Source: an uncultured Eubacteriales bacterium
Lineage (GTDB): Bacteria; Bacillota; Clostridia; Oscillospirales; CAG-272
DNA length: 64,000 nt
Direction of reading: 5' to 3'
NCBI GenBank assembly: GCA_900546695.1
Contig: URDX01000001.1
Span: 15,441 to 79,440, forward strand
Shown: piece after piece, positions 22,839 to 46,381 of the stretch
Layout of the letters: every line of letters starts with the position of its first letter
How positions within the stretch are numbered: position 1 is the stretch's first letter
Notes under the pieces: generated by a model
The model's input: only the letters and a program-made list of their open reading frames with translations
Databases searched by the model: none
Told to the model about the DNA's origin: nothing
Position numbers and translations under genes: made by a program

Positions 22839-22937
22839 CTAAGTGCCATGTTGCCTAAGTGCCGCGACAAACTAAGTATCACGCAGCATAAGCGTCACGC
22901 AGGCCAAGTATCACGCGGTCAAAGTGTCACGGCAGCC
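22839..22937. repeat. Six degenerate tandem repeats, about 16-bp period
   Basis: The units are aagtgccatgttgcct, aagtgccgcgacaaact, aagtatcacgcagcat, aagcgtcacgcaggcc, aagtatcacgcggtca and aagtgtcacggcagcc. The last unit overlaps the stop codon of the 22927 gene. Confidence 0.8.
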
Positions 22938-24207
22938 GATTGCCGCCCTCCCTATCCTTAACCTCGCGCAGTGCCCTTATCTCACGTCCGAGTCTGCGTC
23001 TCGCGCCGAACGCCTTGTACGTAAGCCTGCGCAGTGCAAAAAACGGTATAAGATACGGCCTGCGATCGAGAAAGTCATAGTGACGGCGAAACCATGAAGC
23101 GGGCGGGAACGCGCGGCGGCGGAGATAACCGAGCCTGCCGAGCAGGGTCAGACGGTCGCCCGACGAATGCGCCATAATGTCGTTTATGATGCTGTATGAG
23201 ATATTACCGTACGTGCCGCAGGAGAGGCAGAGATCGACAATTTGCATCAGATCCTCATCAAGCCTCTGCGACAGCATATCCGGCTGCACGGGCTCCGAGA
23301 ACAGCGCGTACGCCGCACGTCTGAACAGCGCTTCGAGCCCGTCAAGCCCTATCCTTCTCAGCAGCTCCGCCGTTTCCGCATCGGGCTCCCCGCCCTTTGC
23401 GCGTGCGATGACATAGATGTCACACAGCGAGCGTATTCCCGTCCCGTGAGACAGAAGGTGCTTCCTTATATGTGCGAGGGTATATGCATACTCGTCGGCG
23501 GGGGTCATTCTGCGCGCGTAGCAGCTGCGGTCGGGTGACGTATCATCCCAAATCAGACGTTCTGAGATAGTCGAAAAATAATTCTGAAACAGCTCGATAC
23601 AGTCGGGAGCGATAAGGTCGACATGCATCTCATAGTTATATATCGGCGCGCGCGTGTAGGTATCGTGATGGTAGGTGCCGTAGCTGCTGACGGTATACCC
23701 GCGCCCTGTCATTATATCGCGCACCTGTGCCCTGCCCTTCGGATCGAACAGTATATCGTTATCCGACATCTCGCGCATTCCGACGGCGGGATAAAGCTGC
23801 TTTATGCCGATGCCCTTGAGCGTTGTGTGCCAAATTTTTGCGCGGTCAAGCTCCGCAAGAATCGCCGCGCGCTCGCAGTCAAGCAGCATTATCTTGCGCA
23901 CCGACTTTTCCCTGCGCTCACGCAGCTGCGCGAGTGCACGCGCGGTCGCCTCATCGGACGCGACAATGCCGTCGGATGCGACATTTCGGGATTTGTCGGA
24001 CGCGCTGTGCAAACCGTCTGAGTCGCCGTGCGAATCATAGACCCCCGCAGAAGCGAGTGCGGCGCAGCACATTGCGGAAACGCTGTGTCTCGCTGCCTCG
24101 CGCGCGATCTCGGGGATATTCATCCTCCGCAGCACGGCGGGCTCGGGCGGTATGCCGCCCAATGCCGATGCGAGCAGATATATAAGTCCTGCCTGATTTT
24201 CGGTCAT
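22927..24207 (-). CDS. Nucleotidyltransferase family protein (NTP_transf_5-like)
   Basis: The pattern LKGIGIKQLYPAVGMREMSDNDILFDP...RGYT...HHD...YEMH is typical of the uncharacterised nucleotidyltransferase family found in RiPP-type clusters. Its start overlaps the upstream stop (ATGA). Confidence 0.65.
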   Translation of the reverse strand: MTENQAGLIYLLASALGGIPPEPAVLRRMNIPEIAREAARHSVSAMCCAALASAGVYDSHGDSDGLHSASDKSRNVASDGIVASDEATARALAQLRERREKSVRKIMLLDCERAAILAELDRAKIWHTTLKGIGIKQLYPAVGMREMSDNDILFDPKGRAQVRDIMTGRGYTVSSYGTYHHDTYTRAPIYNYEMHVDLIAPDCIELFQNYFSTISERLIWDDTSPDRSCYARRMTPADEYAYTLAHIRKHLLSHGTGIRSLCDIYVIARAKGGEPDAETAELLRRIGLDGLEALFRRAAYALFSEPVQPDMLSQRLDEDLMQIVDLCLSCGTYGNISYSIINDIMAHSSGDRLTLLGRLGYLRRRAFPPASWFRRHYDFLDRRPYLIPFFALRRLTYKAFGARRRLGREIRALREVKDREGGNRLP

Positions 24208-24668
24208 TTCCGTATTCCTCCCATGCCGAGTGCCCGTGCGGCTCTGCGCGCCGCCCCGATAAGAGCCGCCCGACAGCGCAGCAATGCGATGCGCAGCCGA
24301 TAGGGCTTGCAGTACAGCGACACATACAAGCGATAGCCGAGCCCGCCCGTGCCGTGCTCGCGTCCGCGGCGGGTATACCCCGTCATGACGCCGATGACCC
24401 GCTCCTGCGGAATGCTGCGCTCAACGGTAATACAGTTGTCGCCGAGAATGTCATAGCTGTCACCGTTTACGCGAATAATGCGGTGCAGCACATAAGACTG
24501 CGGCGGGCGGGTATAAAGCACGACATCCCATCTGCGGCAGACCTCGCCGCCGTGCAGCGCGCGGACAGTGAATGCATCCCGCCCCTGCTTTATCAGCGGC
24601 AGCATGCTCACGCCGACATTTCTGTATGTCAGCTCACCGTAGCGCTCCAGATACTCCTCGTAGGTCAT
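24204..24668 (-). CDS. S24/S26-type serine peptidase-like protein
   Basis: It has a GVSMLPLIKQGRD motif of the GxSMxP type, plus VLHRIIRV...ILGDN. It overlaps both neighbours by ATGA. Confidence 0.6.
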   Translation of the reverse strand: MTYEEYLERYGELTYRNVGVSMLPLIKQGRDAFTVRALHGGEVCRRWDVVLYTRPPQSYVLHRIIRVNGDSYDILGDNCITVERSIPQERVIGVMTGYTRRGREHGTGGLGYRLYVSLYCKPYRLRIALLRCRAALIGAARRAARALGMGGIRK

Positions 24669-24922
24669 TCCTCGACGGCACCGACCGAGCGGAGCTTTTC
24701 GATAACCGCCTCCGCGTCGCTGCGCAGCCGCTCGCGCGGAGCGTCGTACTTTTCGTACATAGCGTCGACTATCGCATCAAGCGTTGTATCACTGCGCAGC
24801 TGCTCGACGATGAAAGCGGCTGTTTTGTTGTTGCGTATAACGCCCGAGAATGAATTTGAAATATCGACAAGCACCTGCTCGCCGTCGCTCATGTGCGAGA
24901 TAAATGTATCCTTAAGCTTCAT
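24665..24922 (-). CDS. PqqD-family peptide chaperone (RiPP recognition element)
   Basis: The 85-aa product is MKLKDTFISHMSDGEQVLVDISNSFSGVIRNNKTAAFIVEQLRSDTTLDAIVDAMYEKYDAPRERLRSDAEAVIEKLRSVGAVEE, which follows the classic PqqD layout. The rest of ORF 24665-25330 overlaps the upstream gene. Confidence 0.75.
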   Translation of the reverse strand: MKLKDTFISHMSDGEQVLVDISNSFSGVIRNNKTAAFIVEQLRSDTTLDAIVDAMYEKYDAPRERLRSDAEAVIEKLRSVGAVEE

Positions 24923-25725
24923 TTTTGTTCCCTTTCTGCGGTATTCTGCGCCCAGATGGTTTGACGCATGCCGAGATATGCCGTTATCGCCGCCTGCGGC
25001 TCCATGTTGCAGCACAGCGACCAGAGCGGGACGGAGTCCGCCATGCGGTCGACGAGCGAAAGCGTGCGCGCAAGCGCTGCGGGGCTGTGCGGGCGGTAGG
25101 TCTGCTGCAGCAGAAGCGGGTAAATATCCCGGCGGGCGGCGGGAAAGATGCTGTTGCGCTCCGCGCGCCCGAGAACGCACAGTCCGCGCAGCGGCACCGA
25201 TGTGTCGGTGCCGAGTCGGTGCTTGCCGTTCCACGGTGTGCCGTATGCGATGACTCTGCCGTCCTCGATGCGCAGCAGCGGCTTGTCGTCGTTTATCATG
25301 ACCGCGCGATCGCCGAAATACTCCCGCCACAGCCGTGTGTGCGTTGATTTTCCCGTGCCGCTTTTTGCGGTGAAGATGTAGCCCTCGCCGTCTACGGCGA
25401 TTACCGAGCCGTGAAACAGCACGGTATCATATTCGGGGAGACGTTCCGCTATCGCGCGGTAGACCGCGAGCGTTTCGAGATAGCCGTCACTCGGCGCGGG
25501 CTCGGCACAGTTTGCGGCATTCGCACAATCTAAAGCAGCGGCGCGACGCTCGGCTGTCCTGCTGCGCTCGGAAAGCGTGCGTTCGCGCGCGATGTCGGCC
25601 TCGGACACGTCGACTGTAAAGTCAGCGCTACGGCGGTCGTGACAGATGTACCCCTCGCAATATTTTTCTATGTACGGGTAAAGATTGTTTACCGCTATTC
25701 TTATATCTGCGAGCTTAATTATCAT
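24919..25725 (-). CDS. HPr-kinase-related (HprK-like) P-loop kinase
   Basis: The P-loop is FTAKSGTGKSTHT. Its size and its pairing with PqqD resemble the HprK-related kinases of lasso-type clusters. The RBS GGGAGG lies 7 nt upstream of the start. Confidence 0.65.
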   Translation of the reverse strand: MIIKLADIRIAVNNLYPYIEKYCEGYICHDRRSADFTVDVSEADIARERTLSERSRTAERRAAALDCANAANCAEPAPSDGYLETLAVYRAIAERLPEYDTVLFHGSVIAVDGEGYIFTAKSGTGKSTHTRLWREYFGDRAVMINDDKPLLRIEDGRVIAYGTPWNGKHRLGTDTSVPLRGLCVLGRAERNSIFPAARRDIYPLLLQQTYRPHSPAALARTLSLVDRMADSVPLWSLCCNMEPQAAITAYLGMRQTIWAQNTAEREQK

Positions 25726-25800: not shown

Positions 25801-27075
25801 CTATTTTTCCGCGTTCTCAGGCTGCTCGTCTTTCTTGTCGGAAGAAGCTTCGGGCGCTTTGTTCTTTGCATCGCCTGCATCGGGTGTGTTGTTCTTGCTG
25901 TCTGATACGGGGTCGCCATCCGATGCGGGCGTGTTATCTTGTGCGGGCATGCTGCCTACGTTGCGTTTTTTGCGTTTTGAAATAAGCACGAACGCAAGGC
26001 AGCCGAGCGGAATAATAATTGCTGCGCATATCGCGAGCTTAACGCCGAGCGTAAGCCCGCCCGTGCCCGATGTGCCGTCCTGTGCTGCGCCGTCAGACGC
26101 GGTCGTTTCGGCGGGAGCTGCTGGGACATCATAGCTGCTCTCGCCGCCCGCGCCGTTGGGATATACGACGGTCGCGCCGTCGTTTTCGACACGAACGCGG
26201 TCGCCGTTCTCGTCTGCGATTATCGAGCCGTCGCCGTCGTCGGCTATGCCGTACTTCTTGCTGCGGTCTATCACGGTGACATTGCTGTCGCGGTCGACCA
26301 TGACGAGATTTCCCGTATTGTCGACGGTAATGACGCTGCCGTCGGCTGCGGGTATGCCCTTGTCGGTAACACCGTCGATGCCGCCGTCTTCCTGAAAGCC
26401 CGCGCCGCTGTTACCCGTGCTGCTGCCCGCGCTGCCCTTGTTTCCCGAGCCGCTCGTGCTGCTGCCCGCATTACCGTTTCCGCTTGTGCTGCCGCCGTTG
26501 CCTGTACCGCTGTTTCCGTTATTACCGGCGTTGCCGCCCGTGTTGCCCTTGCCGTCAGTGCTGCCCGTTTCGCTGCCCGATTTATCATCGGTGCGTGGCG
26601 CATCGGTCTCGGACGGAGCGGGGTCATTCGCCGTTGTATCGTCAAAACGGTTGACCTTGTCGGGGTCGACATAGACGGGATAATCCTCTATAATGACGCA
26701 CCCGCTCGGCACGCACGGCGAGATGCTGCGCGACTGCAGAATTACCACCCGCAGCTGTGTCAGAGCGGTGAGCAGTGCATCGTCTATCGACGTGAGCGTG
26801 TCGGGCAATGTCAGCTTTTTCAGCGGGAGATCGGAGCGGAATATGCGTCCGCGAATCTCGGTGACCTTTCTGCCGCCGAGGCTGTCGGGGATAACTATCT
26901 CGCTCTCCGAGCCGAAATACCCGACTATCGCCGCCGTATCGCCCGATATTGTATACTTAAAATACCCCTCGGAATATACGGTATCATCCGCCGCAGAGAG
27001 CGGCAGCAGCGAGAGCAGCACCGACAGCAGCAGTATCACCGCCGTGCATATGCTTGTTTTTCTTTTGTACTTCAT
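25801..27075 (-). CDS. Type-I membrane protein: signal peptide, BspA-type LRR, G/S/N-rich linker, C-terminal TM and Lys/Asp-rich tail
   Basis: MKYKRKTSICTAVILLLSVLLSLLPLSA is followed by LRR-like VIPDSLGGRKVTEIRGRIF..LKKLTLPDTLTSI. A long GNxGS low-complexity tract follows, then the TM segment LAICAAIIIPLGCLAFVLI. The ATG at 27075 follows GGAGA. Confidence 0.7.
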   Translation of the reverse strand: MKYKRKTSICTAVILLLSVLLSLLPLSAADDTVYSEGYFKYTISGDTAAIVGYFGSESEIVIPDSLGGRKVTEIRGRIFRSDLPLKKLTLPDTLTSIDDALLTALTQLRVVILQSRSISPCVPSGCVIIEDYPVYVDPDKVNRFDDTTANDPAPSETDAPRTDDKSGSETGSTDGKGNTGGNAGNNGNSGTGNGGSTSGNGNAGSSTSGSGNKGSAGSSTGNSGAGFQEDGGIDGVTDKGIPAADGSVITVDNTGNLVMVDRDSNVTVIDRSKKYGIADDGDGSIIADENGDRVRVENDGATVVYPNGAGGESSYDVPAAPAETTASDGAAQDGTSGTGGLTLGVKLAICAAIIIPLGCLAFVLISKRKKRNVGSMPAQDNTPASDGDPVSDSKNNTPDAGDAKNKAPEASSDKKDEQPENAEK

Positions 27076-27092: not shown

Positions 27093-27130
27093 TTAAAAAT
27101 AAGGATGACAGGCTTACGCCTGCCATCCTT
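27093..27130 (-). terminator. Terminator after the giant gene and small ORF
   Basis: On the minus strand the hairpin aaggatggcaggc-gtaa-gcctgtcatcctt has one mismatch and is followed by attttta. Confidence 0.65.
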
Positions 27131-27151: not shown

Positions 27152-27253
27152 TTAATCGAATTCTGCTCCGCCCTCTTCATTCGAAGCAGTAACTATGTCC
27201 TCGGATTCAAACACAATTACTTCGGTTTCGGGGCTGATATACTTTTCCTTCAT
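27152..27253 (-). CDS. Unannotated 33-aa acidic peptide with lasso-leader-like YxxP N-terminus (candidate RiPP precursor)
   Basis: The minus strand has GAAAGGA, a 5-nt spacer, then ATG. The product is MKEKYISPETEVIVFESEDIVTASNEEGGAEFD followed by TAA. It lies 26 nt after the giant gene stop and 21 nt before the terminator hairpin. It is below the ORF-track length cutoff. Confidence 0.45.
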   Translation of the reverse strand: MKEKYISPETEVIVFESEDIVTASNEEGGAEFD

Positions 27254-27279
27254 ATAAATCCTTTCTGATTGTATGTTAC

Positions 27280-30200
27280 TCAGTTTCCTGCCGGAGACTT
27301 AACGGAAGCGCCGGTATACAGCGTTTCAATATTTCCTGCGGCATCAACATAAGTAATATATCCTCTTACATACAGATTCTTAGCAGCGGATTTCGGACCC
27401 ATAGATATCGTGAAGCCGTAATTACCCTCTGCAGCAGTAGTAGAAGGATTACTTACATAAATATTGCTGTCTCCGATATTCTCAGCAGTGAGCTTATCTG
27501 CATAGGCATCATTAAACGTATACAGGATACCCGCCTTAGCAAGCTTACATCCTTCAGGCAGCGACCAAGCTACGTTAGTTGCAACCGCAACCTTATTAGT
27601 ACCGGAAACTGCAGTACGCTCACTGACAGTAATAGTTACAACAGCTTCGGGTTCAGGCTTCTCGGTCAAATACATAGTAGTGAGCACAACATCGCTCTTA
27701 ATTATAAACGAGTAGGTTGCGTTCATACTGACACATGTATTACCGACATACCATCCTGCAAAGTACTTGCCGTCTGCATCCATCTCGTCAGCCGTTACAG
27801 TAACGCTCGAGCCGTATGCATACTTTGTCTCAAGCGCAGCACCGTCAACAGTTACGGTATAGAGCTCGCTGTCAGCCACATACTTTGCAAAGATAATAGC
27901 ATTAGCTGTGACACTGATATTACCGTTTGCATTAACTTCAAACTCGTTGCCATCAGCATCAAACCATCCGGCAAATGTATAGCCGGAATAGTAAGGCATA
28001 GAAGGAACAGCAACTGCTCCGACTCCGCCGGTCAGTTTAACATCGCCGGACCAATGGATATCCTTAGTTATGGTATCTCTGAATACGACATATGCGTACT
28101 CTGTGCTGCCGGTATCCTCTACATAGCATGCAGTAAGTCCGGTCTTATCACCAAGTATAAAGCTATACTCGGGAGCTTCGGATACGACCTTATTCTCCGC
28201 ATTAATCCAATAGAGGAACTTGTAGCCCGCATTCGGAACAGCGGTTATCGTAAACGAAGTACCCTTAGAATAGAGCTGGTCGATAGCAGGACCGCTCCAA
28301 CGTCCTTCAACATCGCCGTACTTGTAATTTACCTTACCTGCGCCGACATTGACGGAGAGTTTAACCTTTTCAGTACCTCTGAACATTGCAACAAAGTCAG
28401 CGTTTGCAGAAGCCTTGAATGTATAGGCTGCATTCTGGGAAACGCACTCGCTGCCCTTGTACCAACCAAGGAACTCATAGCCGCCGTTTGCGGTAGCCGT
28501 GATAGTTACCTCGGTGCCTTCCTCATACGCTCCGCCGCCGGTAAGAACGCCTGCGCCTGCAGGGCTAACGGTCGTCGTAACGGTATACTGAGGAATCGGT
28601 ATCCACTTTGTATTATCGCTGTCACGGACAAGTATCGTATACTCACCTGTGCTGCTTGTGCTTACACAAAGCTTTCTGTTACCGCTGACAGTGCCGTCAT
28701 CAAAGGTATGAACCTCTGTAACGGAGCCCTCGTTTACGAAAATCTTAGGCTCAAGCTTATTAGCGGTAGTGTAAGTATTAATCGCGATCGAGCTGACCTT
28801 GGTATTGTTCAGTACGAGCGGATTAGCGCTTGAAACGTTAGACCAAATTGCAGATACATACATATCTTTATTGGTATTGTTATTGGAGATATCGCAGTTT
28901 GTCATAACTGCACCGTGTGTACCGTAGAGATTTACGGCAATGTAGTAATTACCGCTGATCTTTACATTGGTAAACTCGGTAGAGGTTCCGCCGCAAAGGA
29001 AGATCGCAAAGCGTGCGGTACCTTCCATAGTGAGGTCCTTAATCTTGATGCCGGTGCAATAAAGCCTATCGTTCGCATTACCAAAGTAAAGTGCACTTCC
29101 GCCCGACTGCATAGGATCGGTCGTGGTTGCGCAGGTAATGGTATAGCCGTTACCGTCAAGCGTAAGACCGTTAAGAGCCTTTACGATATCAATCTGCTCG
29201 GTAAGAGTAATGTTCTTGAGAAGTCTTACGGTATAGCCCGTCTCGACATTACCAAATGCCTCTGCGAGAGTTGCATATGCCTTAACGGAGTTACCATCAG
29301 CGTCAAGAATCTGTGCTGCCATATCGGAAACTGCAACAAAGTTGCCGCTCTCGTCCTTAGCAACACCGACACCCTCTGCAACAAAGCTCGGGGTCTTGCC
29401 GTCGACCTTCTTCTCGGGAGAAACGTTCGGGTCAAAGTCTGCAAATGTACCGCCCTTAATTGCCACCTTAGCGTCGCCGGAAGCAAATGCATCGTCGATG
29501 CAGTTAATGAGGTACATCGAAGAGTCGTTCCACTTCTGGAGAAGCGAGAAATTACCGCCGTTGATAACGAGGTTACCCGACTCTACCTGAACTACGGAAA
29601 CGTTACCGATAAATGTACCGTTCTCGATGGTGAGAGTGCTGTTACCTTTAACATTGAAGGTATAGCAGTCATTTTCCTTTGCCGCAATAGTACCGTTGCC
29701 GGTTACTGTGACATTTGCACCGTCGTCAATCAGGATAAGAGAGTTAACTTTATCCCAAATATCTGCGGTGTTTCTGATTGTGTAACCGCTCAGGTCAAGT
29801 GTAATGCTCTTGTTGATAACTATCTGCTCGGTTACGTCAACACCTGCGATAAGGGTTACGGTATCGCCGGCCTTTGCGGCATCAATTGCCGCCTGAAGAG
29901 ATACATACTTTTCATTGCCGTTCTGAGCAACATACACGCCGGTCTTTACGCCGTAAGTACCGTCCGCATTCTGCGTAGGAATGAAGCCAACTGCGCAATA
30001 GTCCTCGGGAACAGCAGTTGTGAATGTACCGCCGGAGACTGCGATAGTACCGTTTGTGTTATCAAATACACTCCCGGTCATGTCCTTCCACTCGTATGCC
30101 TTGAAAGCATAGTTTCCGGTCTTAGCGGTAAACCTTCCTGCCTCAACCTTGACTTTACCAAGATCCTTATAGCCGGGACGATTGATGACGGAGATAGCAG

Positions 30201-33200
30201 CGCCGTCCTCTATCGCACCGTCGTTCTCTGTCTTTTCAACAGGGCCGCCGGTAACGGTGATGGCACTCTTATCGCCTACGATATTCAGGCTGCCTGCGCA
30301 AACCTGAGCACCCATGGTCTTAGCGTTGATAACGCTGTTGTTGATGGTCAGCGTACCGCTGCTCGGGAAGTAAATTCCGAAGCCGTTCGGGACATTGAGC
30401 GTCGAATTAATGAGTGTAACATTATCATTGGTGTTGCCGCCGTTTGTCTCGATACCGCTGTGACCGTTGGCTGTCATGGTGACATTCTCAAACACCAGAG
30501 CAGAGTTGTTGTAGGTAGTAGAACCGCCCATAGCGGAGGGGATGAGACCAACCATCGAGTTACTTATGACCGTACCGTTCATCACGGTCAGTGTAACGTC
30601 AGAGTAGTTAATCTCGAACGCCGCACAGTCAGTGTATTTTCCGGTGTATGTCCAAGTATGACCGCCAAGATCGATGGTAAGATTCTTGCTGCCGGAGTTC
30701 TGTACCTCACCGGTGGTGTAGTCACGCAGCAGATAGAGCGTCTTACCAGAATCAAGAGCAGCATGGAAAGCCTCGTTCATCGTGTAGTAGGAGGTGTCGC
30801 CTACCTTGGCAAGGTAAGCTTTTTCTACACCGAAGGTGCCGTCAACATTTGTCTTAACAGCACTTCCCTCTACTACATACTTGGCAGGATCCTTCTCGAA
30901 TGTACCCGCAGTTACCTCGATGGTAGCCATAGCAGTTTCATCGGTAGGAACCAAACCGTCTCTGTAGGTATATGTGCCGAGCGTTCCGGTGACAGTACCA
31001 CCCTTAACGTAGATACGCGCCTGCTTATCGGCAGCGCTGTCATAGTTTACGGAAGCAACATTGCCGTTTACGGTACCGCCGCTGATTGTGAGCGTACTGT
31101 AAGCAACACCCGTGCTGTATGCCCAAGAGGAAACAGTACCGTTAACAGTACCGCCCTTAATATTAGCAGCGCGCCAGTTTTCAACAGCATAGCTGTTAGC
31201 AGAGTTAACTACACCGCCAAGGAGATGCAACGTACCGTAGTCAACCTTGATTGCAACAAAGTTATCCTGAGTAAATGTACCGCCGGTTATTGTCAATGTA
31301 GGGTTGGCATCGCGTACGTTATCGTTGCCGAGGCGTACAAGAGACGCGCCCTTACCACTCTTTGTACCGCTGTTATTTATAACGTTACCGCCCTCAAATC
31401 TGAGGAAGCCGTACTCACCCTGAATATCAATTACATAGTAGGAGCTGACACCGGAGTTTTCTGCGGTATCCTCACGCATGATGGTACCGGTCTGACCCGC
31501 GCTGCTGTCCATGATTGTAACTCTCGCGTTATCAATCTTAACAGCGGCTTTCTCCTTGACCTGTCCGCCGTTGATAGTAAATCCGTTAAGATCAAGTATC
31601 AGATTCTTAGAGATGGTAACATTCTCACGAGTGTCTGCGAGCATCGTAACAGTTTTGCCTCTCGTTGCAGCATTAATTGCTTCTTCGAGAGATTCGTACT
31701 TAATGCCGCCGGTCTCAGCAACATAAGTACCGGTCTTTACGCCGTGAGTACCGTCCGCATTCTGCGTAGGAATGAAGCCAACTGCGCAATAGTCCTCGGG
31801 AACAGCAGTTGTGAATGTACCGCCGGAGATGGAAATCGTTTCGTCGTTAAGATCGCTGTACTTTTCCATGACGGAAGCAAGGCTTGCAAGACCTACAGGT
31901 CCTGTATATTTACCATCGCCGATAATCGTCACTGTACCTTCAGGCTTAGGAGTTACCTCTACTCCTGTATTATCGGTAGATGCAACAGCAAAACCGTGTG
32001 TAGCTGCACCGTTATTATTTGGGACGTACTCTACCTTGGTGGAGGTAGCGGTTACGGTGCATCTGTCAAGTGTGAGGTCGGTATATTTAACCTCAATACC
32101 CGTTCCGCCGTTAACAACACAATTGGTAAGAGTTACATTCTGCATTCCGCCCTTTGTAACAGTCGCGGAAGAGCCGGAAATGTAGATACCGGTCATATCA
32201 TAGTTACTTTCGGCGGGCTCACCCGAACCACCGATAATTGTCGAATCGGTAATCTTGAGTTTAAGTCCGTAATTAGAGCCGTTATGATACAGACCGCAGG
32301 ATCTACCGGTAATATTACTATTGGTAATAGTAATATCGGAGTTATCAGCGAAATCTGCTATTGCATAGCCGGCGCTGACAGTCAGCTTGTCAGCAGTATG
32401 TTTATAACCAAGTGTCTTACTGGAATAAGCAAGACCGACAAGTCCCGCAGACTCAATAGTAAGATTTTTTATTGTTGATTTTCCCCAGACAGCTATACCA
32501 CGCGCACTTGCACTTGTAGACTTGTAGGTTCCGTTTTGGATGGTAATAGTTTTTTCGGCAGACAACGAGTAGCCATTGCCGGAATAACTATTAGCAACGG
32601 TATGACCATTAAGGTCTAAGGTAATTGCTTTGCTAATGGTCAACTTATCAGAAAGCTGAACATCATCAAAAAGCTTTATCGTCTGGTTAGCCTTTACATT
32701 AGCAACTGCTTCTTCAAGAGACTCATAGCAAGCCGAGCCAATCTTTGCAACCAGCTTACCTTCTTTGATACCATAAGTACCGTCAGAGTTCTTGACAAGT
32801 ATGCATCCATCAGCCCAATAATAATCTGGTATATCCCTATTGTAAGTACCGCCACTAACCTCATAATTAGCGTTTGTGGCAGGAGACATGTAATGGAATA
32901 TGGGGTATTTCGTATTCTTAATTCTATATGTACCGCCGGTTATCTTAGTTATGGATGTATATCCGCTAACAAGACCGGTTACAACTACTCTTGCATTAGT
33001 GCTTGAGCTGTTCTGAATGAATTCGCCACCGGTAATTGTCGTATCTCCATAAACAAGAATTGTACCGGTTACTCCAAAACGAGGAGCATAGTCTGACACA
33101 TATTTACCACCGTTAATAACAAGGGTCGAACCTTCCTCGCTCTTAACAACGTTAAGACCGCCGGTGTATGTACCGCTCTTAATTGTAAGGTTGCCCCAGT

Positions 33201-34563
33201 TATCAATCATCGAAGAACCGGTATTGCCCGCAGTAGCAGTAACACCGGTCAGTGTAAGGTTTGCATTGCTGCCCTTTACAACTTCGATGTTATAGTAGCT
33301 TGTACCGCCTACAACAGTACCGTTCGTTACGGTAACAGTCGCGCCGTTCTGAACGGAGATAGTTGCCTTACCTGCGTTTGTGTTCGTCAGCGTCTTGCCG
33401 CCGAGGTCGAGCGTGATGTTCTTGTCAATTACAACATCATAGGTTGCATCCGCAAGAAGCTTAACGGTCTCGCCGTCATTAGCAGCTGCAACAGCTGCGG
33501 CAAGAGTCTCGTACTTGTTCTCGCCTATCTCAGCCGCATAATTAACAGTTTCGGAAACACCGTATGTGCCGTCGCCGTTATCTTTGATGGTGACACCGTC
33601 TGCGAGATAGTCGCTCGGAACTTCGGAAGTAAACGTACCGCCGGTGATATTAAACTCTTCCGATACCTTATCGGCAGACGAATCTGCGGAAACATTGAAC
33701 GTTCCGTTTATACCGCTGCCGTTCGCCTCAATAGTGTAATCTGCGCCGCCGCCTTCTATAGCTTTCTGGAGCAGACCCTTTGCGCAAGCTTCAGCAGTAA
33801 CATTATCAAATGTAATGTCGGTTGCCTTGGAGACGACAATTGCTGCCTTCTCAGTCATACCGTTAAAGGTTGTATTCTCAATCTTTATTGTCGGTGCATC
33901 AACCGTACCTTCAGTATAAGCCTTAACACCGCGGAATCCGGTAAACGTACTGTTCTTAGCCTCAGTAACGGTACCGCCGTAGTTCCAAAGACCGTAATTT
34001 CCTTTTGTAGAATTGAGCTTGCAATTATCTATTACGGTCTTTCCGTAACGATTGTTGCACAGACCGTTCGGGAAAGTGCAGTTTGTATATGTTACGGTAT
34101 TATCAGCATGGTTTATATTACGGAGCTCACATGCAAAATAATTGGTAGTGTGTCCGTGGTCATTCACCCAAGTTCCGTTCGGATGAGAGAGGGTAAGGCC
34201 CTCGAAGCTTACATCAATATCGTAAGCCTGATCCCCCAAAGCTGACTTGGGATTCGTAATGCAAAGCTCGGCAGTGACATCCTCGCCGACAAACTTAACA
34301 GCAGTAAGACCTGTAAGTCCGCTCTTTGCAACCTCTATCCAAGCATCGGTCGAAATAATGTCGACCTTGCCGCTGACGGTATAGGTAATAACACCGTCAA
34401 TCGGTTCTGCATTTTGAACAGCAGTTTCAAAGGTGCTGTAAGTTATATTGCCAACCTTGATCGTTCCGCCGTCATCCGCGAAAACCGCGACGGGCATGAG
34501 CGAAAGCACCATCAGAACCGAAAGAATAATACTTAAAACGCGATGTTTAGAATTAATCTTCAT
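27280..34563 (-). CDS. Giant secreted/surface protein: signal peptide, at least 7 right-handed beta-helix modules, C-terminal InlB-B/Flg_new-type repeats
   Basis: The signal peptide is MKINSKHRVLSIILSVLMVLSLMPVAVFADDG. Module junctions of the form GGTF(T)..VP.DY.A.G......DGTYGV.....A.IG...Y.(S/T)L..A...A..G.T(V/I)..L recur. The C-terminus has GGYEFLGWY, GYKFLYWI, GYTFAGWF and GKYFAGWY repeats. No LPXTG motif was seen. Confidence 0.85.
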   Translation of the reverse strand: MKINSKHRVLSIILSVLMVLSLMPVAVFADDGGTIKVGNITYSTFETAVQNAEPIDGVITYTVSGKVDIISTDAWIEVAKSGLTGLTAVKFVGEDVTAELCITNPKSALGDQAYDIDVSFEGLTLSHPNGTWVNDHGHTTNYFACELRNINHADNTVTYTNCTFPNGLCNNRYGKTVIDNCKLNSTKGNYGLWNYGGTVTEAKNSTFTGFRGVKAYTEGTVDAPTIKIENTTFNGMTEKAAIVVSKATDITFDNVTAEACAKGLLQKAIEGGGADYTIEANGSGINGTFNVSADSSADKVSEEFNITGGTFTSEVPSDYLADGVTIKDNGDGTYGVSETVNYAAEIGENKYETLAAAVAAANDGETVKLLADATYDVVIDKNITLDLGGKTLTNTNAGKATISVQNGATVTVTNGTVVGGTSYYNIEVVKGSNANLTLTGVTATAGNTGSSMIDNWGNLTIKSGTYTGGLNVVKSEEGSTLVINGGKYVSDYAPRFGVTGTILVYGDTTITGGEFIQNSSSTNARVVVTGLVSGYTSITKITGGTYRIKNTKYPIFHYMSPATNANYEVSGGTYNRDIPDYYWADGCILVKNSDGTYGIKEGKLVAKIGSACYESLEEAVANVKANQTIKLFDDVQLSDKLTISKAITLDLNGHTVANSYSGNGYSLSAEKTITIQNGTYKSTSASARGIAVWGKSTIKNLTIESAGLVGLAYSSKTLGYKHTADKLTVSAGYAIADFADNSDITITNSNITGRSCGLYHNGSNYGLKLKITDSTIIGGSGEPAESNYDMTGIYISGSSATVTKGGMQNVTLTNCVVNGGTGIEVKYTDLTLDRCTVTATSTKVEYVPNNNGAATHGFAVASTDNTGVEVTPKPEGTVTIIGDGKYTGPVGLASLASVMEKYSDLNDETISISGGTFTTAVPEDYCAVGFIPTQNADGTHGVKTGTYVAETGGIKYESLEEAINAATRGKTVTMLADTRENVTISKNLILDLNGFTINGGQVKEKAAVKIDNARVTIMDSSAGQTGTIMREDTAENSGVSSYYVIDIQGEYGFLRFEGGNVINNSGTKSGKGASLVRLGNDNVRDANPTLTITGGTFTQDNFVAIKVDYGTLHLLGGVVNSANSYAVENWRAANIKGGTVNGTVSSWAYSTGVAYSTLTISGGTVNGNVASVNYDSAADKQARIYVKGGTVTGTLGTYTYRDGLVPTDETAMATIEVTAGTFEKDPAKYVVEGSAVKTNVDGTFGVEKAYLAKVGDTSYYTMNEAFHAALDSGKTLYLLRDYTTGEVQNSGSKNLTIDLGGHTWTYTGKYTDCAAFEINYSDVTLTVMNGTVISNSMVGLIPSAMGGSTTYNNSALVFENVTMTANGHSGIETNGGNTNDNVTLINSTLNVPNGFGIYFPSSGTLTINNSVINAKTMGAQVCAGSLNIVGDKSAITVTGGPVEKTENDGAIEDGAAISVINRPGYKDLGKVKVEAGRFTAKTGNYAFKAYEWKDMTGSVFDNTNGTIAVSGGTFTTAVPEDYCAVGFIPTQNADGTYGVKTGVYVAQNGNEKYVSLQAAIDAAKAGDTVTLIAGVDVTEQIVINKSITLDLSGYTIRNTADIWDKVNSLILIDDGANVTVTGNGTIAAKENDCYTFNVKGNSTLTIENGTFIGNVSVVQVESGNLVINGGNFSLLQKWNDSSMYLINCIDDAFASGDAKVAIKGGTFADFDPNVSPEKKVDGKTPSFVAEGVGVAKDESGNFVAVSDMAAQILDADGNSVKAYATLAEAFGNVETGYTVRLLKNITLTEQIDIVKALNGLTLDGNGYTITCATTTDPMQSGGSALYFGNANDRLYCTGIKIKDLTMEGTARFAIFLCGGTSTEFTNVKISGNYYIAVNLYGTHGAVMTNCDISNNNTNKDMYVSAIWSNVSSANPLVLNNTKVSSIAINTYTTANKLEPKIFVNEGSVTEVHTFDDGTVSGNRKLCVSTSSTGEYTILVRDSDNTKWIPIPQYTVTTTVSPAGAGVLTGGGAYEEGTEVTITATANGGYEFLGWYKGSECVSQNAAYTFKASANADFVAMFRGTEKVKLSVNVGAGKVNYKYGDVEGRWSGPAIDQLYSKGTSFTITAVPNAGYKFLYWINAENKVVSEAPEYSFILGDKTGLTACYVEDTGSTEYAYVVFRDTITKDIHWSGDVKLTGGVGAVAVPSMPYYSGYTFAGWFDADGNEFEVNANGNISVTANAIIFAKYVADSELYTVTVDGAALETKYAYGSSVTVTADEMDADGKYFAGWYVGNTCVSMNATYSFIIKSDVVLTTMYLTEKPEPEAVVTITVSERTAVSGTNKVAVATNVAWSLPEGCKLAKAGILYTFNDAYADKLTAENIGDSNIYVSNPSTTAAEGNYGFTISMGPKSAAKNLYVRGYITYVDAAGNIETLYTGASVKSPAGN
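29939..30038. repeat. 100-bp intragenic repeat, copy A
   Basis: ccggtctttacgccgtAagtaccgtccgcattctgcgtaggaatgaagccaactgcgcaatagtcctcgggaacagcagttgtgaatgtaccgccggaga is identical to copy B except for one A/G position. Confidence 0.9.
31730..31829. repeat. 100-bp intragenic repeat, copy B
   Basis: It matches copy A with one mismatch. The offset is 1791 bp (3 x 597), which is in frame. Confidence 0.9.
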
Positions 34564-45577: not shown

Positions 45578-46381
45578 TCAGAGCACCTTCGAGAGAAATT
45601 CCTGTGCTCTCGGTGTTTTCGGATGATCGAAGAACTCGGCGGGTGCCGCATCCTCCATGACCTTGCCCTCATCCATAAAAAGCACGCGCGTCGCGACCTC
45701 GCGGGCAAAGCCCATCTCGTGCGTGACGATTATCATGGTCATACCCGTATCCGCAAGCTCCTTGATAACGTCAAGCACCTCGCCGACCATTTCGGGGTCG
45801 AGCGCGGAGGTAGGCTCATCGAAAAGCATAACGTCGGGATTCATAGCGAGCGCGCGGACGATGGCGATACGCTGCTTCTGTCCGCCCGAAAGGGTCGACG
45901 GGAATACATCACGCTTATCGAGCAGACCGACGCGGGCGAGATACTTTTCGGCGCTCGCGTTTATCTCCTCCGCCGTGCCGAGTCCGAGGCGGGTCGGCGC
46001 GAGGGTTATATTCTGCATTATCGTCAGGTTATTGAAGAGATTGAAATGCTGAAAGACCATGCCCATACGGCGGCGCAGCATATCGGTGGGGATACCGTTC
46101 TTTTCCTTTATCTCACGCTCCGCGCGGCGCAGAGCCGAGCTGCCGAGTCCCTGCAGCTCGGGATGGAGCGAGGGATCGACCTCGTTTGTCAGCTTACCGT
46201 CAAACCATATCTCGCCCTTTGTAGGGGTCTCGAGCAGGTTAAGACAGCGCAGTATCGTACTTTTACCCGAGCCCGACGGTCCGATAACAGCGACCTTTTC
46301 GCCGCGCTTTATATCGAGCGAAACGCCCTTCAGCACCTCAAGCTGTCCGAAGCTTTTATATACATTCTTAACGCTTATCAC
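45578..46381 (-). CDS. Amino acid ABC transporter ATP-binding protein
   Basis: It has Walker [10 protein letters not shown], the signature LSGGQKQR, and Walker [13 protein letters not shown] roughly 30-aa insertion follows the Q-loop region. Confidence 0.93.

Follow-up and report, generated by a model that had tools for sequence, protein, structure and literature searches.

A 33-codon gene of an uncultured Eubacteriales bacterium as putative precursor of a linear phosphorylated peptide, and its coupling to a giant surface-protein gene

LPP systems and the cassette beside the 33-codon gene

Linear polyphosphorylated peptides (LPPs) were described in May 2026, mainly from 126 clusters of Bacilli, and are exemplified by the lpp cluster of Paenibacillus alginolyticus DSM5050 (Popov et al., Nat Commun 2026, PMC13381572). 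Their gene set consists of a SipW-like archaeal-type signal peptidase (LppS), a discrete recognition element (RRE) for peptides that are ribosomally synthesised and then modified post-translationally (RiPPs) called LppB, an HprK-like kinase (LppK), an uncharacterised NTP transferase (LppN) and an MsbA-like exporter (LppD), and the precursors (LppA), of 35-200 aa, share the N-terminus YxxPxVLxHQxIxFETxxS and have variable C-termini (PMC13381572). In P. alginolyticus the leader is cut off after F-E-T and Ser3 of the core gains one to four phosphates via LppK; cleavage requires LppB and is poor without phosphorylation, with F-3, E-2, T-1 and L-10 being important for cleavage, Y-16 and P-13 for binding by the RRE, and N33 and D70 of LppB for holding the Pro kink and the Tyr hydroxyl (PMC13381572). 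LppN was inactive in the heterologous host, and the final product and role of LPPs are unknown (PMC13381572). Here we describe a 33-codon gene, a candidate member of this group of precursors, and the enzyme cassette downstream of it, both located on the minus strand of a 64,000-nt stretch of DNA (the window, in whose positions all coordinates are given) from an uncultured Eubacteriales bacterium (GTDB lineage Oscillospirales; CAG-272; assembly GCA_900546695.1, contig URDX01000001.1, positions 15,441 to 79,440).

The peptide gene is followed on the minus strand by genes for a 424-aa membrane protein, a kinase, a PqqD protein, an S26B peptidase and an NTP_transf_5 nucleotidyltransferase (NTase), of which the last four overlap by 4 nt each (Table 1), and the kinase gene starts at 25725, 1.4 kb downstream of the peptide. 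Of the components by which LPP systems are recognised, this locus has a SipW-like peptidase with Ser, His and Asp, an adjacent discrete RRE, a kinase of the HprK-like type and a PF14907 protein. Judged from these sequences, it is quite likely that the small open reading frame (ORF) encodes an LppA-like precursor of a linear phosphorylated RiPP that this cassette would make.

The peptidase shows the clearest relationship with the Paenibacillus system: it is 33% identical to LppS (E = 4.6e-9), its catalytic S21, H62 and D77 align with S29, H68 and D93 of LppS, and it matches a Ruminococcus SpI from the dataset of the LPP paper with E = 1e-16; its best NCBIfam match is archaeal signal peptidase I, below cut-off. 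The PqqD protein retains the equivalents of LppB N33 and D70, its best NCBIfam matches are sub-threshold hits to lasso PqqD/RRE models, and a sequence search of the PDB with it gave no match. In the kinase the P-loop GTGKST is invariant among 22 homologues, and the NCBIfam scores are weak (TIGR04249 ScmC, 18.8 against a cut-off of 125; TIGR04352 HprK_rel_A, 16.7 against 200). The window kinase is about 20 aa longer than its homologues of about 245 aa, as the result of an Ala/Arg-rich insertion (…SERSRTAERRAAALDCANAANCAEPAPSDG…) in the variable N-terminal third.

Table 1. Features of the peptide locus (window coordinates).
Feature	Coordinates	Strand	Remarks
Putative LppA-like precursor gene	27152..27253	-	33 aa, 33 codons; product MKEKYISPETEVIVFESEDIVTASNEEGGAEFD
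Conserved block of precursor	27182-27253	-	residues 1-24
Predicted leader of precursor	27203-27253	-	residues 1-17
Variable acidic tail of precursor	27155-27181	-	NEEGGAEFD
Peptide stop codon	27154-27152	-	TAA
Shine-Dalgarno-like motif	27259..27265	-	GAAAGGA, read from the sequence; 5-nt spacer TTTAT, then ATG at 27253
Intrinsic terminator or attenuator	27093..27130	-	13-bp G+C-rich hairpin and T-run
Leucine-rich repeat (LRR)-like membrane protein	25801..27075	-	424 aa; signal or transmembrane (TM) segment, BspA-type LRR-like region, C-terminal TM
HprK-like / ScmC-family P-loop kinase	24919..25725	-	LppK equivalent; motif SGTGKST; PF27840 on record
Discrete PqqD-type RRE	24665..24922	-	LppB equivalent; 85 aa; PF05402, 5.9e-15
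S26B (archaeal/ER-type, SipW-like) signal-peptidase homologue	24204..24668	-	LppS equivalent; 154 aa
NTP_transf_5 nucleotidyltransferase	22927..24207	-	LppN equivalent; 426 aa; PF14907, 1.1e-31
Giant secreted surface protein	27280..34563	-	2427 aa; signal peptide, beta-helix repeats, Flg_new_2/Flg_new repeats

The peptide family and its association with the cassette

A first-pass annotation, made from the letters of the window alone, had described the ORF as having the layout of a real small gene, and this layout is found in the sequence as it was given there: GAAAGGA, five nucleotides and ATG, a gap of 26 nt between the stop codon of the giant gene (TGA, 27282-27280) and the peptide ATG at 27253, and a hairpin that begins 21 nt past the peptide TAA. 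The hairpin runs from 27130 to 27101 and is followed by ATTTTT; it folds with -25.7 kcal/mol (z = -5.3), and none of 200 shuffled sequences folds equally well. It is kept in the nearest species (locus L011), where one G.T pair is a G-C pair, and a similar hairpin with a T-run is visible 3' of the peptide gene in the more distant locus L132.

As ORFs of at least 25 aa are so frequent (164 in 16 kb), the length of 33 codons alone says nothing, and this abundance is what speaks for a chance or untranslated intergenic frame. That explanation is effectively refuted by the thousands of members of the family, by their coding substitution pattern and invariant residues, and by the conservation of ribosome-binding site, position and strand. 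The exact product is called as a gene in 86 blocks of public collections, on at least 49 contigs, all of which come from human-gut metagenomes or metagenome-assembled genomes and have the same synteny throughout. Among 54 distinct homologous coding sequences the entropies at codon positions 1, 2 and 3 are 0.76, 0.51 and 1.47, a clear coding signal, such as a translated gene leaves in its sequence. Over the stretch of codons 1-24, L011 differs from the window by seven conservative replacements and six silent changes, and its tail is entirely unlike that of the window. The ORF is a genuine small gene, as its layout had suggested in the first-pass annotation; it is under coding selection and belongs to a huge family with a conserved leader and a variable tail.

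The size of this family became apparent through genomic context. A phmmer search with the single peptide against 1.84 billion representatives returned only seven matches, one of which (P0248) was rejected as a spurious hit to a TAL-like repeat protein. A search for homologues of the kinase gave more than 6,800 significant matches; 22 aligned homologues were used to fetch 80 species-level loci, and a phmmer/HMM search of all small ORFs in these loci yielded 42 distinct homologous peptides in 33 of them. A profile built from the alignment of the relatives recovered in this way identified 4,471 clusters of 30-65 aa among 5.8 billion proteins, none of which has a name or a Pfam domain, and no Pfam or NCBIfam model matches the peptide even at E = 10. 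In the window the profile of the relatives matches only the peptide ORF (E = 1.3e-14; next best, E = 2.6), and no further copies were found with it.

The relatives share the block Y-x-x-P-x-M-E-V-I-x-F-E-T-E-D-V-I-T-T-S, followed by a hypervariable, mostly acidic tail. Across 168 members the N-terminal part reads Y(99%)-x-x-P(61%)-E-M(84%)-E-[IV]-[IV]-x-F(100%) and continues directly with [ED]-[TAS]-E-D(100%)-[VI]-I-T-[TA]-S(100%)-G(71%). In the window peptide the invariant residues are F15, D19 and S24, and its motifs are I13-x-F15-E16-S17 and Y5-x-x-P8; the latter had been noticed before as a lasso-leader-like YxxP motif, and its Tyr is near-invariant in the family. The tails are 5-42 aa long (median 13), consist of 25% Gly, 13% Asp and 11% Glu, and carry a mean charge of -3; 40% of them, including NEEGGAEFD of the window, are without Ser, Thr or Tyr. 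The leader was not found at the N-terminus of large proteins, no match having a tail of more than 60 aa.

Some members of the family depart from the single-gene arrangement. Locus L062 (2314-3223) has six tandem peptide genes, about 155 nt apart and directly upstream of the kinase gene, whose products have a common leader and differing short acidic tails (GIIDGDED, GELIEDGDED, GIIDGAKD and others). The 65-aa metagenomic peptide P0124 contains two complete leader copies in one frame (MEKYEALEMEVIRFEAEDVICTS..MEKYEALEMEVIRFEAEDVICES..) and probably represents two tandem precursor genes joined through loss of a stop codon. Cys-rich tails (GCNGMD.., GYCPN.., GCPDYVYGEDED) occur on the same leader family beside a radical SAM or SPASM-like gene, in L097 (448-7369), L036, L017, L025 and L076; in L097 the radical SAM/SPASM-like gene separates the kinase gene from the PqqD gene within an LPP-type cassette that is complete in other respects. 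The leader family thus appears to serve more than one modification chemistry, and these five loci would also be the argument for the window peptide being the precursor of a radical-SAM product of the ranthipeptide or sactipeptide kind. Its tail lacks Cys, and within 10 kb there is no radical SAM gene, which makes that reading highly improbable for this locus.

The association with the cassette can be seen from both sides. At least one peptide gene is present at 33 of the 80 cassette-anchored loci, and at 26 of the 80 it shares the strand of the kinase gene and lies upstream of it by no more than 1.5 kb. When loci were looked up by exact peptide sequence, the peptide was found within the cassette in three of seven species (L097, L099 and L100). 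In metagenomes, scanned with a tighter alignment as the broader one was too diverse, it was inside the cassette for 5 of 11 peptides whose flanking sequence covers 8 kb or more in both directions; a chance encounter with a cassette of about 5 kb in a genome of a few Mb is expected in about 1% of cases. The relatives' cassettes typically have the order kinase-PqqD-S26-ABC exporter-NTase, with the exporter present in 32 of 54 assessable relatives and missing in the window, L011 and about eight others. Together with the description of the same gene set in the LPP paper (PMC13381572), these neighbourhoods support the earlier proposal of the ORF as candidate precursor for the PqqD cassette.

The linkage between peptide and cassette had been put down as an inference on account of the terminator and the LRR gene between them. 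This observation holds for the window; the order of a giant Flg_new_2 protein, peptide, hairpin, LRR protein and kinase-PqqD-S26 is nevertheless seen again in L132, which has the exporter and a kinase of only 49% identity to that of the window. Neither the gene nor the terminator in between therefore disrupts the association of peptide and cassette, and the linkage is firmer than had been assumed.

Predicted processing of the peptide

By analogy with the published Paenibacillus system, from which binding, cleavage position, phosphorylation site and order of steps are all transferred, the following pathway is proposed. The peptide would be translated from the transcript of the giant gene, with the hairpin behind it limiting read-through. 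In RiPP operons a hairpin typically follows the precursor gene and raises the ratio of precursor to enzymes. The discrete PqqD protein would bind the Y5-x-x-P8 segment in beta-strand form, and the HprK-like kinase would phosphorylate the invariant Ser24, probably several times. The PqqD protein would then present the peptide to the SipW-like S26B peptidase for removal of the leader, most likely by a cut after F15-E16-S17 that frees EDIVTA(pS)NEEGGAEFD, or alternatively after T22-A23-S24, and the NTP_transf_5 enzyme may elaborate the phosphate further. As 40% of the tails lack Ser, Thr and Tyr, the phospho-acceptor Ser must lie in the conserved block. An S24/S26-type peptidase had already been suggested as the processing enzyme, and the S26B peptidase, standing in the place of the lasso protease, is a good candidate for this role.

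For the position of the cut, the site between F15-E16-S17 and E18, which would leave the 16-mer EDIVTASNEEGGAEFD, is favoured with moderate confidence; it is homologous to the FET site that was mapped and makes use of the invariant Phe. Given this cut, the conserved EDVITTSG would parallel xQSWNKG at the start of the Bacilli cores. A cut after T22-A23-S24 would fit the rule of small residues at -3 and -1, the family having T, S, C, V or A at -3 and the invariant Ser at -1, and is on balance doubtful. The V-T-A/S cut of the first-pass annotation is the least consistent of the three: it would put a variable residue (T, A, D, E, N, G or S) at -1, and the sole relative with an experimentally mapped site is cut after F-E-T, which corresponds to F15-E16-S17/E18 here. 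S24 is likely to be the phosphorylation site, on the same analogy, rather than a residue of the cleavage site.

The presence of a YxxP leader also raised the question of a lasso peptide, in which the leader would be cut by a B2 protease and the core cyclised and threaded. Besides the leader, the best (sub-threshold) matches of the PqqD protein to lasso RRE models agree with this, and HprK-like kinases and NTP_transf_5 enzymes tailor lasso clusters of the paeninodin type (PMC7533575, PMC13381572). A lasso precursor is nevertheless very improbable: neither an Asn-synthase-like cyclase nor a transglutaminase-like B2 protease was found within 10 kb on either side among the Pfam-annotated genes of ten strains, the cassettes of the relatives likewise have neither, the S26B peptidase occupies the place of the protease, and the tail is only 9-16 aa long. 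Lasso leaders carry [Y/W]xxPx[L/V/I/A/F/Y] with Thr at -2, and lasso cores an acceptor Asp or Glu at position 7-9; of these features, YxxP is present, the +5 residue is Thr, and T22 stands at -2 only if the cut is between A23 and S24; these features are moot, as the locus has no cyclase. The earlier conclusion that the product is not a threaded lasso therefore stands.

Several observations weigh against assigning the peptide to an LPP-type pathway, or against its details. At the level of the peptide, the spacing from Tyr to Phe is 10 residues as opposed to 13 in Bacilli LppA, the invariant Ser follows Phe by 9 residues as opposed to 5, and the Clostridial profile scores about 0 bits on Bacilli LppA, with only YxxP and [VI]xFET matching. 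The residue equivalent to T-1 of LPPs is variable in the Clostridial family, which leaves the cleavage site uncertain, and the window peptide has Thr at +5 from the Tyr where the family has Met, Leu or Ile. At the level of the cassette, BLAST finds no significant similarity between the PqqD protein and LppB, and an MsbA-like ABC exporter is absent, the S26 and NTase genes abutting each other; the window's sole ABC match, at 45650-46336, is an ATPase domain that is unrelated. As to linkage, a strong terminator and a 424-aa gene stand between peptide and cassette, for many peptides the distance to any cassette exceeds 8 kb, and 47 of the 80 cassette loci lack a peptide within 10 kb, which also holds for relaxed searches by profile and regex. 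The precursors of these 47 cassettes may be encoded elsewhere or may be too diverged for the profile. Ruminococcus flavefaciens Y1 (L020, 8847-14298) is one of these loci, which all have a cassette and no recognisable precursor within 10 kb; in such loci the cassette is complete (GT2-kinase-PqqD-S26-ABC-NTase).

Coupling to surface-protein genes and comparison with known systems

The tightest linkage of the peptide genes is to the large gene that precedes them. For 65 of 96 testable peptides an ORF of 500 aa or more ends no further than 150 nt before the peptide gene, the gaps being -1 to 90 nt (22/38 in the genome set, 5/11 among the exact look-ups and 38/47 in the metagenome set); as a background, 8% of all frames of 100 aa or more in these loci reach 500 aa. 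The partner proteins have signal peptides and adhesin-type domains (PKD, Big_7, CAP, Glug, beta-helix, Flg_new_2), and their C-terminal 100 aa fall into a few families. A helical family ("..KALYxY..AAxAY") is accompanied by a Pro-hydrophobic motif in the peptide tail (LPFVP, LPPMGI, TPFEPV) in 13 of 20 lineages. The motif occurs in none of the nine lineages of an Ig-like family, to which the C-terminal module of the giant window protein belongs and whose peptide tails are acidic or Gly-rich, such as GGGQIGGGDEGFGD or NEEGGAEFD of the window, and a third partner family pairs with its own conserved tail. The difference between 13/20 and 0/9 corresponds to a hypergeometric p of about 0.001, the lineages not being fully independent. 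This suggests a match between the variable core and the C-terminal domain of the neighbour, which we take as a lead and not as proof; the mature peptide, with a tail matched to the C-terminal module of the upstream protein, would then probably act together with it at the cell envelope. The link to the giant gene, even tighter than that to the cassette, had no place in the first-pass annotation.

The same linkage can be turned into a different explanation, according to which the peptide is only an accessory of the giant surface protein (such as a co-translated chaperone, or a secretion or regulatory partner) and the proximity of the cassette is incidental. In addition to the linkage with the upstream gene, which is the commonest as well as the tightest, this would account for the four of seven peptide-anchored species that have no cassette within 8-10 kb, for the correspondence between the tail type and the C-terminal module of the partner, and for the terminator separating peptide and cassette. 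We nevertheless regard it as improbable, as what is conserved in the peptide is a YxxP...FET leader such as RRE proteins bind, cassettes are strongly enriched beside the peptides, and the peptides of L062, L097 and L099 are inside cassettes with no large protein nearby. Moreover, the accessory and precursor readings are compatible, trans-acting precursors being common in RiPP systems.

A combination of both can be proposed tentatively, and we give it a rather poor chance of holding as a whole: in gut and rumen Clostridia, LPP-type peptides would be dedicated partners of single giant surface proteins, with cores matched to the C-terminal modules. The precursor would be encoded immediately downstream of each large secreted-protein gene, and the peptide, once phosphorylated, possibly elaborated and exported, would serve in binding, anchoring or maturing the surface protein cognate to it. 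If true, the LPP family would thereby have a first function, and the arrangement would represent an unrecognised way to attach or regulate cell-surface proteins in Gram-positive anaerobes. The coupling of precursor and surface protein and the co-variation of the tail are a concrete lead on LPP function, testable in abundant human-gut organisms.

The giant gene varies in length among the strains of loci L001-L010 (1335, 1793, 1922, 2079, 2128, 2427, 2525 and 2579 aa) and is sometimes split in two; the 33-aa peptide is identical in all these strains. The giant protein contains near-identical internal repeats, for example GGTFTTAVPEDYCAVGFIPTQNADGT[HY]GVKTG, present twice. Tandem modules, each with a signal-peptide protein of about 1100 aa followed by a peptide, were observed in L150 (2588-15811), L147 and L132 (5903-10661), located downstream of the gene of a predicted TetR-family regulator and either upstream of the cassette or close to it. 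Some loci (L150, L147) have two to three such protein-peptide modules between the gene of a predicted TetR-family regulator and the cassette; TetR_N was found on the equivalent 216-aa gene of L095. Paralogues in tandem modules keep their tail type across strains, a gap of about 85 nt going with ..TPFVPFS.. and a gap of about 15 nt with ..LPPMGIDTP.

On the other side of the peptide gene, the next gene often encodes a protein of 110-230 aa with a lipoprotein-type signal (LLTGCSG, LVACGK, LFAACGENG) and an acidic/Thr-rich low-complexity region (L013, L024, L033, L035, L046, L049, L053, L090, L098, L099 and L100). Its place is taken by an LRR membrane protein in the window, L011, L095 and L132, and homologues of the window protein hold the same position in L011, L095/L096 and L132. 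The 424-aa window protein has a low-complexity G/S/N stretch and no Pfam match, and a homologue carries PF13306 (LRR_5). A 459-aa reading of its gene, with an ORF from 27180, inside the peptide ORF and 5' of the terminator, was rejected as an artefact; ATG 27075, 3' of the terminator, leads into a typical signal sequence and is the start chosen by the gene callers in 7 of 10 strain loci (L001-L005, L008 and L010). In L008 and L010, which use this start, the LRR-gene call comes with 64-aa ORFs.

SipW, known from TasA/TapA in Bacillus subtilis, is a membrane enzyme that removes Sec signal peptides and has few substrates, in the cell envelope or biofilm. The window peptidase shares with it the S26B ER/archaeal-type fold, Ser-His catalysis and a dedication to few cell-envelope or biofilm substrates; unlike SipW, it has no N-terminal TM and is predicted to cut a cytoplasmic peptide presented by the RRE. 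SipW is cited as a homologue of LppS (PMC13381572).

With the SynChlorMet kinase ScmC and HprK-related kinase A (TIGR04249, TIGR04352) the locus has in common the P-loop kinase family and a PqqD-like partner; the radical SAM partners of that system (ScmE/ScmF) are absent within 10 kb, and the window kinase is far below the ScmC cut-off. The phosphorylated lasso peptides paeninodin and pseudomycoidin need a B2 cysteine protease and a macrolactam synthetase, both absent here, their leaders mostly have Trp, and their phospho-Ser is the C-terminal residue, as summarised in a later paper (PMC5067487, PMC6993621, via PMC7533575).

The dataset of the LPP paper dates from NCBI of February 2019 and includes 199 peptidases, of which the sole Oscillospiraceae one falls in a separate similarity cluster (#9), with an RRE classed as 'other' and no precursor assigned (PMC13381572). 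Its main text makes no mention of Clostridia or surface proteins, LPP terms were found in no other paper of the searched literature, and the peptide family is not described in the RRE-Finder, rumen lasso and Hungate1000 papers; a literature search on family sequence strings such as EDVITTS found nothing relevant. So far as this literature shows, the Clostridial branch, its precursors and its coupling to surface proteins are undescribed, and the placement after large secreted proteins and the tail type tracking the partner module are likewise not in PMC13381572. In Oscillospiraceae, Ruminococcus and Lachnospiraceae of gut and rumen, the radiation of the LPP machinery is far larger and is unannotated.

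Beyond the spacings given above, the Clostridial family differs from the LPPs of Bacilli in the block after FET (EDVITTSG versus xQSWNKG), in its tails, which are short and acidic (median 13 aa) as opposed to long, basic and Gly/Asn/Pro-rich, and in the position of the peptide gene after a giant surface-protein gene as opposed to a capsule locus. Common to both are the kinase, the discrete RRE, the SipW-like Ser/His/Asp peptidase, NTP_transf_5 and the lack of a cyclase; the precursors of both have, at differing spacings, YxxP and [IV]xFE[TS] in a conserved N-terminus, an invariant Ser shortly after it and a hypervariable C-terminus. Most Clostridial relatives also have the MsbA-like exporter, and the cassette of the window is an LPP-type cluster without it.

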